Source of the DNA: Eledone cirrhosa
Taxonomy: Eukaryota
NCBI GenBank assembly: GCA_964016885.1
Contig: OZ024749.1
Coordinates: 24,676,001 to 24,740,000 of the forward strand
Length of the DNA: 64,000 nucleotides
Direction of reading: 5' to 3'
Shown: positions 43,801-45,044 of the stretch, piece after piece
Position numbering within the stretch: position 1 is the stretch's first letter
Layout: each line of letters starts with the position of its first letter
Position numbers and translations under genes: made by a program
Notes under the pieces: model-generated
The model's database searches: none
What the model was told of the DNA's origin: nothing
The model's input: the letters and a program-made list of their open reading frames with translations, nothing else

Positions 43801-45044
43801 ATATCATAAAATATGTCTTTAGAATCACTAGATATTATATATACCATTTCCTCTCCCAAATAATATAATTAACCATCTAAAAAATCAATTAGACCAAGCT
43901 ATAAGAATAAAGGCTCCTATGAAAAAATCTTCGACAAATAACCGAAAGCAGCCCCTTCGCGGTGGCTACAATAGTTTATTTATGTAACATTTCGACAGCA
44001 TGTAAAAATGGACCAGATATATAGTCAACTAAACACAATTAGGTGTAAAATTGAACTTAGAAGAATTGCGTACATACCAAATTACCTCTACCATGATTTC
44101 ATCCGTATTTTAAGACATCCGATAACAATGTATGTCCAGAGCTTCCGAATCATCAGCAACCAACTCAAAATAAGACATTTAATTTACCAACGTGATCGCG
44201 CCAAAAATACATTAAAAAATTGCTAAGAATCGTGAGGTGGCAGCGGTCAAGTTAGAAAGGATTTGACTAGTTGCTTACGGCGGGTAGGCTTATTGCTAGA
44301 GAGCGCCGCCTAATATCGCCAAATTGTATCTCAACATAACGGGAGATTATTACATATGAAGATTTACATATATATATATAAAGTCATAGATATATATGTG
44401 TTTTGCAACTGGTCACGTTCTGGCTCAATGAGAAATTAATAAATTAAATAAAATAATCAGAGCTATATATCATAAAATATGTCTTTAGAATCACTAGATA
44501 TAATATATACCATTTCCTCTCCCAATTAGTATAATTAACCATATAAAAAATCAATTAGACCAAGCTATAAGAATAAAGGCTCCTATGAAGAAATCTTCGA
44601 CAAATAACCGAAAGCAACCCTTCGAGGTGGCTACAATAGATTATTTATCTAACATTTCGACTGCATGTAAAAATCGACCAGATATACCGTCAACCATACA
44701 CAATTAGGTGTAAAATTGAACTGAGAAGAATTGCGTACATACCAACTTACCTCTACGATGGTTTCATCCGTATTTTAAGACATCCGATAACAAGGTATCT
44801 CCAGAGCTTCGGAATCATCAGGAGCGAGCTCAAAATAAGACATTTAATTTTACAAAGCAATCGCGCCAAAAATACATTCAAACATAGCTAAGAAAAGTGA
44901 CGTGGCAGCGGAAATGGTATATATTATATCTAGTGATTCTAAAGACATATTTTATGATATATAGCTCTGATTATTTAATTTAATTTATTAATTTCTCATT
45001 GAGCCACAACGTGACCGGTTGCAAAACACATATATATCTATGAC
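43801..45044 (-). mobile_element. Family E partial tandem (665-bp unit, two hammerheads at 44086-44159 and 44751-44824) with an inverted arm at 44911-45044
   Basis: Direct repeats at 43801-44250 and 44467-44910; minus-strand CTC-CTGATGA-TTCCG...CGGAT-GAAACCATCGTA-GAG. Confidence 0.85.

Follow-up and report, generated by a model that had tools for sequence, protein, structure and literature searches.

Family E, a dispersed non-coding repeat of Eledone cirrhosa, is very probably an animal non-LTR retrozyme that the enzyme of a Penelope-like element (PLE) copies in trans into (TA)n, and its copy in the window (the whole 64,000-nt stretch of contig OZ024749.1 analysed here) has decayed. The family combines a non-coding unit, a hammerhead motif, TA targets, fixed 3′ ends and two-armed, inverted insertions that pair a 'short' end with a 'long' one. 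An initial annotation of the window had recognized the tandem hammerhead unit and missed the link to Penelope, to which the TA targets and the short and long ends point.

The window is AT-rich, microsatellite-dense DNA from a 3.0-Gb genome, and its family E element is placed between TA/CA runs. The parts of the locus, with a second copy elsewhere in the window, are as follows.

43781–43799: TA-run target at the short end of the element, also the 3′ end of a neighbouring repeat
43800–44911, minus strand: direct arm of 1.68 head-to-tail units (unit positions 503–659, 1–659 and 1–290), with a short 3′ end
44086–44159, minus strand: hammerhead 2, predicted cut after 44089
44089–44753, minus strand: cut-to-cut monomer, 665 nt, non-coding
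44250–44380, minus strand: spacer, a conserved portion of the unit
44352–44463, minus strand: ~106-nt 'tail' in an internal copy, bounded by unit ~292 (short end) and unit ~398 (long end)
44751–44824, minus strand: hammerhead 1, type I, predicted cut after 44754
44903–44911: 9-nt overlap (microhomology) at which the arms meet 5′ to 5′
44903–~45060, plus strand: inverted second arm, unit 232 to ~383–389
51698–52286, plus strand: copy of another subfamily, unit 463–659 then 1–401, with its long end in (TA)n

The direct repeat (44466–44911 against 43800–44246) is 91.5% identical, and the inverted arms (44383–44524 and 44903–45044, 142 nt) are 96% complementary; the long end of the inverted arm has eroded into a CA/TA microsatellite. 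Between the tandem copies, 37 of 439 sites differ, whereas the family averages 3.8% within loci, which indicates an insertion that is old or mixed. The locus is one decayed, aged copy of an abundant non-coding hammerhead repeat. The element had first been described as combining tandem structure, a fold-back and a bulged hairpin. Its tandem structure stands; the fold-back does not belong to the RNA unit, being the inverted second arm typical of the family's insertions; and the hairpin (taken as ~43942–43968) forms in the consensus fold and is mostly absent from the alignment fold. The copy at 51698–52286 is ~79% identical. The neighbouring repeat at 43701–43796 matches 62075–62170; at full extent (43400–43796, plus strand; 62075–62500, minus strand) this other repeat carries a minimal hammerhead-like motif (43581; 62293), and the short end of family E sits tail to tail with it in the terminal TA run of its 43400–43796 copy.

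On the minus strand, CTGATGA cores begin at 44821 and 44156; ~50 nt beyond each come GAAA, then a short palindromic stretch, TA and GAG. The two A17 residues, at 44754 and 44089, are separated by 665 nt, in agreement with the cleavage sites initially placed at about those positions. Across the family the ribozyme is type I, with a CTC/GAG helix I, a long two-part helix II and the palindrome ACCATGGT as helix III, the last suited, by analogy, to the double-hammerhead form described in PMC4209133. Hammerhead 1 keeps its core and 3-bp helix I, has a long two-part helix II and carries U10.1·U11.1; its helix III palindrome is broken and reads ACCATCGT, with a duplex energy of +0.3 kcal/mol against −11.2 for the ACCAUGGU duplex. 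Hammerhead 2 has an intact core and the same U10.1·U11.1 mismatch, with helix I and proximal helix II broken. Two consecutive complete hammerheads are therefore absent here, copy 2 failing in helices I and II and copy 1 in the helix III palindrome. The consensus that the initial annotation called canonical is a composite, which occurs in family E and is fitted by neither window hammerhead. Double cleavage releasing a 665-nt monomer from this locus is unlikely because both hammerheads are damaged; the locus is predicted to be inert or weak, likely releasing little or no RNA circle. The other-subfamily copy has the G10.1–C11.1 pair, a CTGGTGA core and A17 at 51897. We found no Rfam hammerhead match in the whole window at the gathering score, or in 43700–45100 at E ≤ 10, which the long insertion in helix II probably explains. 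When each hammerhead was folded without constraints (z 0.25–1.26), the hammerhead topology was not recovered, and it is not the predicted minimum-energy fold. The GAG|GTAAGT that follows cut 1 was considered as a PLE intron donor behind an ATG, and rejected: at this place the consensus has GGTAATT and another subfamily GATATAA, and there is no frame after it. Further CTGANGA...GAAA motifs lie at 12028, 19142, 20285, 26512, 35890, 36043, 40490, 58858 and 61959, several of them recurrent, pointing to more candidate hammerhead families.

Family-wide, 98 of 110 sampled hammerheads have an intact core, and 61 have the core and all helices (two of 112 rows, L012:1164 and L126:1208, were dropped). 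Core and stem columns are 97.7% conserved, other columns 85.3%. Pair 10.1–11.1 reads TT in 40, GC in 34, AT in 18, AC in 9 and GT in 4 of this sample, which is biased toward the window's subfamily, and it is unpaired in 52 of 108 rows. Exact genome-wide counts are 66 for U·U, which occurs in two differently sequenced subfamilies, and 129 for G–C. The sequences suggest that this normally conserved pair has been relaxed repeatedly. Covariation is modest and mostly in helix II: two-sided changes affect 4 of 19 pairs, a number that shuffles match (258/500), and the cells with two-sided changes outnumber those in every one of the 500 shuffles, a control blind to relatedness.

The genome matches a 21-nt hammerhead segment exactly at 1,152 places and the reversed control at 0; the segment is exact in 61 of the 110 sampled hammerheads, and the two figures together imply a rough minimum of ~2,000 hammerhead-bearing copies genome-wide. 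These are dispersed across many chromosomes. In the genome DNA search, 40 of 3,865 first-look candidates were scored. A consensus of 17 units, a reconstruction proposed with the first description, is 659 nt long and, read in six frames, lacks a long open frame; cut-to-cut monomers (n = 35) measure 619–675 nt, bearing out the idea of a tandem, retrozyme-type hammerhead unit of ~660 nt. Column identity over the spacer is 92–93%, the same as in the rest of the unit (35 monomers); the proposal that the spacer belongs to the unit, which called for its conservation at 44250–44380, thus holds. The additional argument drawn from the copy at 51699–52286 holds in part: this copy crosses the hammerhead junction and contains CTATGACTTT..ATGTAAATCT, and covers the spacer only partly (unit 463–505 and 375–401, not 402–462). 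Unit GC is low (34–35%), subfamilies are ~12% apart, and copies diverge by 3.8% within and 6.0–7.5% between loci. Arms at the 84 loci carry one complete hammerhead in 68 cases, two in 11, three in 3 and none in 2; C12 segmental duplicates, the haplotype duplicate L009, overlapping loci, arms below 80% identity and TA-rich columns were dropped. Single monomers fold better than 25 shuffles (z −2.9 for the window's monomer, −4.3 for the consensus). A conserved whole-monomer fold is unsupported, the consensus structure pairing 23% of columns with two-sided changes only in distal helix II. At C12:17.02–17.48 Mb (L012–L029), one family E insertion is present eight times, ~60 kb apart, within a large tandem segmental repeat.

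The insertions themselves follow a strict rule. Arm 3′ ends are fixed at unit ~292 (short) and ~398 (long), 106 nt apart; the 84 loci supply 64 short, 63 long and 20 other ends, and 120 of the 127 short or long ends run into TA. Two-armed insertions are inverted, with their 3′ ends pointing outward. By alignment, all 39 classifiable pairs consist of one short and one long end, 13 of 52 pairs having an unclassifiable end and being left out. A motif-based recount gave the same combination in 34 of 35 pairs in top-hit loci and in 15 of 16 in 40 position-ordered C1 loci, a total of 49 of 51 two-armed insertions; both exceptions are short+short and are multi-piece loci (L108 and L220). Four apparent long+long pairs did not survive inspection: three reflect aligner overrun into (TA)n, and in the fourth (L223) one arm stops close to the long site, outside TA sequence. 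The longer arm may lie at either end (long in 24, short in 15). Inner junctions differ between loci and, among 52, overlap by 1–12 nt in 26, are blunt in 7 and gapped in 19. By analogy, we read the one-short-one-long pairing as the 'tail' footprint of PLEs. Among the papers listed by literature searches, none gave counts of such pairing for retrozymes in its title or the opening of its abstract, and supplements to the bioRxiv work cited below may bear on the point.

These features suggest a route for mobilization. Tandem copies would be transcribed and, if intact, cut as double hammerheads through the helix III palindrome, yielding unit-length RNA that may then circularize. The GIY-YIG endonuclease of a PLE would cut both strands of a TA run, and each DNA end would serve as primer for reverse transcription, which would start at one of two internal sites. 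The reverse transcriptase (RT) would pass the hammerhead junction, covering up to ~three units, and the two cDNAs would join head to head, often through microhomology.

What the RT read can be judged from the arms. The cut site is crossed by 104 of 148 arms, only 3 of the 148 start near it, and unit junctions are in register in 117 of 123 cases, which argues for an uncut multimer or a circle as template and not a cut linear RNA with frequent stops. Over 4,317 sites, divergence between tandem copies (3.75%) resembles that between opposite arms (3.85% or 4.2%), with L008, L164 and L126 as exceptions. Locus-private alleles are shared at 1.57/kb between tandem copies and 1.62/kb between opposite arms; alleles found in at most two loci are shared at 2.83/kb in tandem, against 0.046/kb between loci. 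Dimers show no position-specific inherited differences (108 vs 114). Equal divergence, equal sharing of private alleles and the lack of dimer differences together favour an array regenerated from one unit-length sequence, consistent with a template that is unit-length and possibly circular. A nearest-neighbour template test did not discriminate, scoring 78 own and 95 other with 7 ties. For a circle these comparisons fall short of proof, given homogeneous linear sources, gene conversion and a sample of 84 among thousands. Two unlabelled contig sets from one sample cover the stretch, a kind of data that bears on neither RNA ends nor circles. We would place slightly below even the prospect that a dimeric PLE enzyme copies one ~660-nt RNA circle from both DNA ends, obligately using one short and one long site and rolling past the ribozyme junction. 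On such a reading cleavage needs only be weak or protein-assisted, since subfamilies lacking G10.1–C11.1 kept spreading. If true, the insertions would be direct genomic evidence that PLE retrotransposition is twin-primed, asymmetric and templated by a circle.

Rather doubtful, and still to be taken seriously, is a template with no circle at all, in which uncut linear multimers from a few homogeneous source arrays are copied and the hammerhead is vestigial or dispensable. Insertion by PAc in vitro does not need hammerhead cleavage (PMC11167929), U·U subfamilies have still amplified in the numbers given above, and only 1 of 9 Xenopus dimers was cleaved (Li, Clavereau & Pollet 2026, bioRxiv 10.64898/2026.07.22.740005); arms show no 5′ truncation at the cut site, which uncut RNA fits equally well. 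Two observations speak against a linear template, namely the equal rate at which tandem units and opposite arms share locus-private alleles and the absence of inherited unit-specific differences, although the allele sharing could also be imitated by gene conversion after insertion or by small subfamilies outside the sample. Against a vestigial ribozyme, subfamilies that differ by 12% conserve the hammerhead core more strongly than the sequence flanking it.

PLEs are abundant in this genome. In the window, one autonomous PLE family is represented at 48064–50820 (plus strand) by a broken, 5′-truncated copy with an RT, a CX4CxxC linker and, at the C terminus, a GIY-YIG-type motif; linker and motif were read from the sequence, and the RT matches in Pfam are weak (E 0.002 and 0.00019, below cut-off). 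This family is young and very abundant, with many near-identical copies whose open frames exceed 1,000 aa and reach 1,217 aa; it has its own minimal hammerhead near 50570 and ends in (TA)n. Its footprint is the same as that of family E, with TA targets, a tail of 41–55 nt and short+long ends in 7 of 8 inverted pairs inspected by eye; a tail of ~98 nt was rejected as an internal TA run. Its pseudo-LTR (pLTR) has no sequence relation to the family E unit. Among 60 endonuclease loci of at least seven families, drawn from 10,596 and 36,125 first-look candidates, none was a PLE with family E ends or hammerhead, and neither a helix III pattern search nor tblastn of flanks found a master PLE. L069 was rejected as master since its family E match starts 1.2 kb downstream of the endonuclease, past TA sequence, and was taken for an independent insertion. 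Fragments 50–66% identical to the 48–50 kb PLE occur near about ten family E loci. A further stretch at 54302–54925 (minus strand) resembles this PLE by eye and is probably a sister family; a hammerhead-like motif lies near 53672 (minus strand).

It is improbable, and largely refuted, that the family E unit is itself the pseudo-LTR of an autonomous PLE and its copies that element's 5′-truncated ends. A hammerhead, a tail and TA targeting each characterize pLTRs (PMC4209133, PMC8557442), and PLE coding fragments are often nearby. However, arms traverse the whole unit into the next copy, for up to ~2,000 nt, and the unit lacks a coding frame, an RT + GIY-YIG open reading frame being absent from family E. 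In the tabulated loci no PLE coding fragment replaces the spacer, the two closest cases inspected (L136 and L162) lying beyond TA runs, and alignment across the spacer holds even for the most diverged subfamily. Satellite-like local tandem duplication and fold-back of DNA in place of retrotransposition is highly improbable: the locus does lie in an unstable microsatellite and copies are closer within than between loci (3.8% against 6.0–7.5%), but family E is dispersed over many chromosomes, uses the same two 3′ ends with one of each in 49 of 51 pairs, and has inner junctions that vary by locus.

Taken singly, the locus in the window is unremarkable, a decayed copy out of roughly two thousand or more. 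Family E is nevertheless a test case for which enzyme moves animal retrozymes and for how the PLE tail and inversion arise; its strict short+long rule, 106-nt tail and natural 10.1–11.1 variants give sharp predictions for an in vitro PLE assay. Elsewhere in the window, a 60-bp tandem repeat at 1375–4746 (minus strand; 56 copies, 97% match) is open for 1,123 aa, Pro/Thr-rich and mucin-like, and is possibly an exon. Open frames at 32067–32561 and 42690–42940 (both plus strand) resemble what we take to be the 3′ ends of LINE-type retrotransposon proteins.

Plant LTR retrozymes carry type III hammerheads in flanking LTRs, whereas family E is type I and has no LTR pair. On its testable features, judged from sequence, family E is an animal non-LTR retrozyme of known kind and size. 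It shares with these elements tandem units that lack coding capacity and bear a single type I hammerhead, low GC, dispersed copies, short multimers, co-occurrence with PLEs and a length within the range of family consensuses, 51–972 bp, with a mean of 650 bp in ray-finned fish (bioRxiv 10.64898/2026.07.22.740005). The initial view that 665 nt exceeds known animal retrozymes is therefore wrong; the older range is 170–400 nt (Cervera & de la Pena 2020, PMC7229834), and family E is longer than the experimentally tested RNAs of 170–400 nt. Its long helix II and 3-bp helix I also set it apart. Animal retrozymes are reported to derive from PLE pLTRs (bioRxiv 10.64898/2026.07.22.740005), whereas no sequence-related pLTR was found here among the 60 endonuclease loci. 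Two-armed insertions with a paired tail are a family E feature that the portions of PMC7229834 and bioRxiv 10.64898/2026.07.22.740005 drawn on here do not mention for animal retrozymes.

The ribozyme is closest to those PLE hammerheads whose helix III is palindromic and which act as dimers (Cervera & de la Pena 2014, PMC4209133), sharing a short helix I, an enlarged helix II and a palindromic 15.2–16.2/loop 3, with the strong ACCAUGGU duplex noted above. The G10.1–C11.1 pair, 'highly conserved' in PMC4209133, is A–U, A·C, G·U or U·U in several family E subfamilies, including the window's. PLE insertions are marked by partial tandems, an inverted 5′-truncated copy and a 30–40 bp tail confined to one end (Craig et al. 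2021, PMC8557442). In vitro, an anole PLE prefers AT-rich DNA, with hammerhead cleavage dispensable, and has its tail located between two internal RT start sites, both strands being cut and extended (Frangieh et al. 2024, PMC11167929). Family E lacks the RT and endonuclease of EN+ PLEs, and its tail is ~106 nt as opposed to 30–40 nt; PAc in vitro showed start sites that did not differ between strands, whereas family E insertions use one of each (PMC11167929). With EN+ PLEs it shares partial tandems, an inverted 5′-truncated arm, a one-ended tail, AT/(TA)n targets and a hammerhead upstream of two 3′ ends (PMC8557442, PMC11167929).
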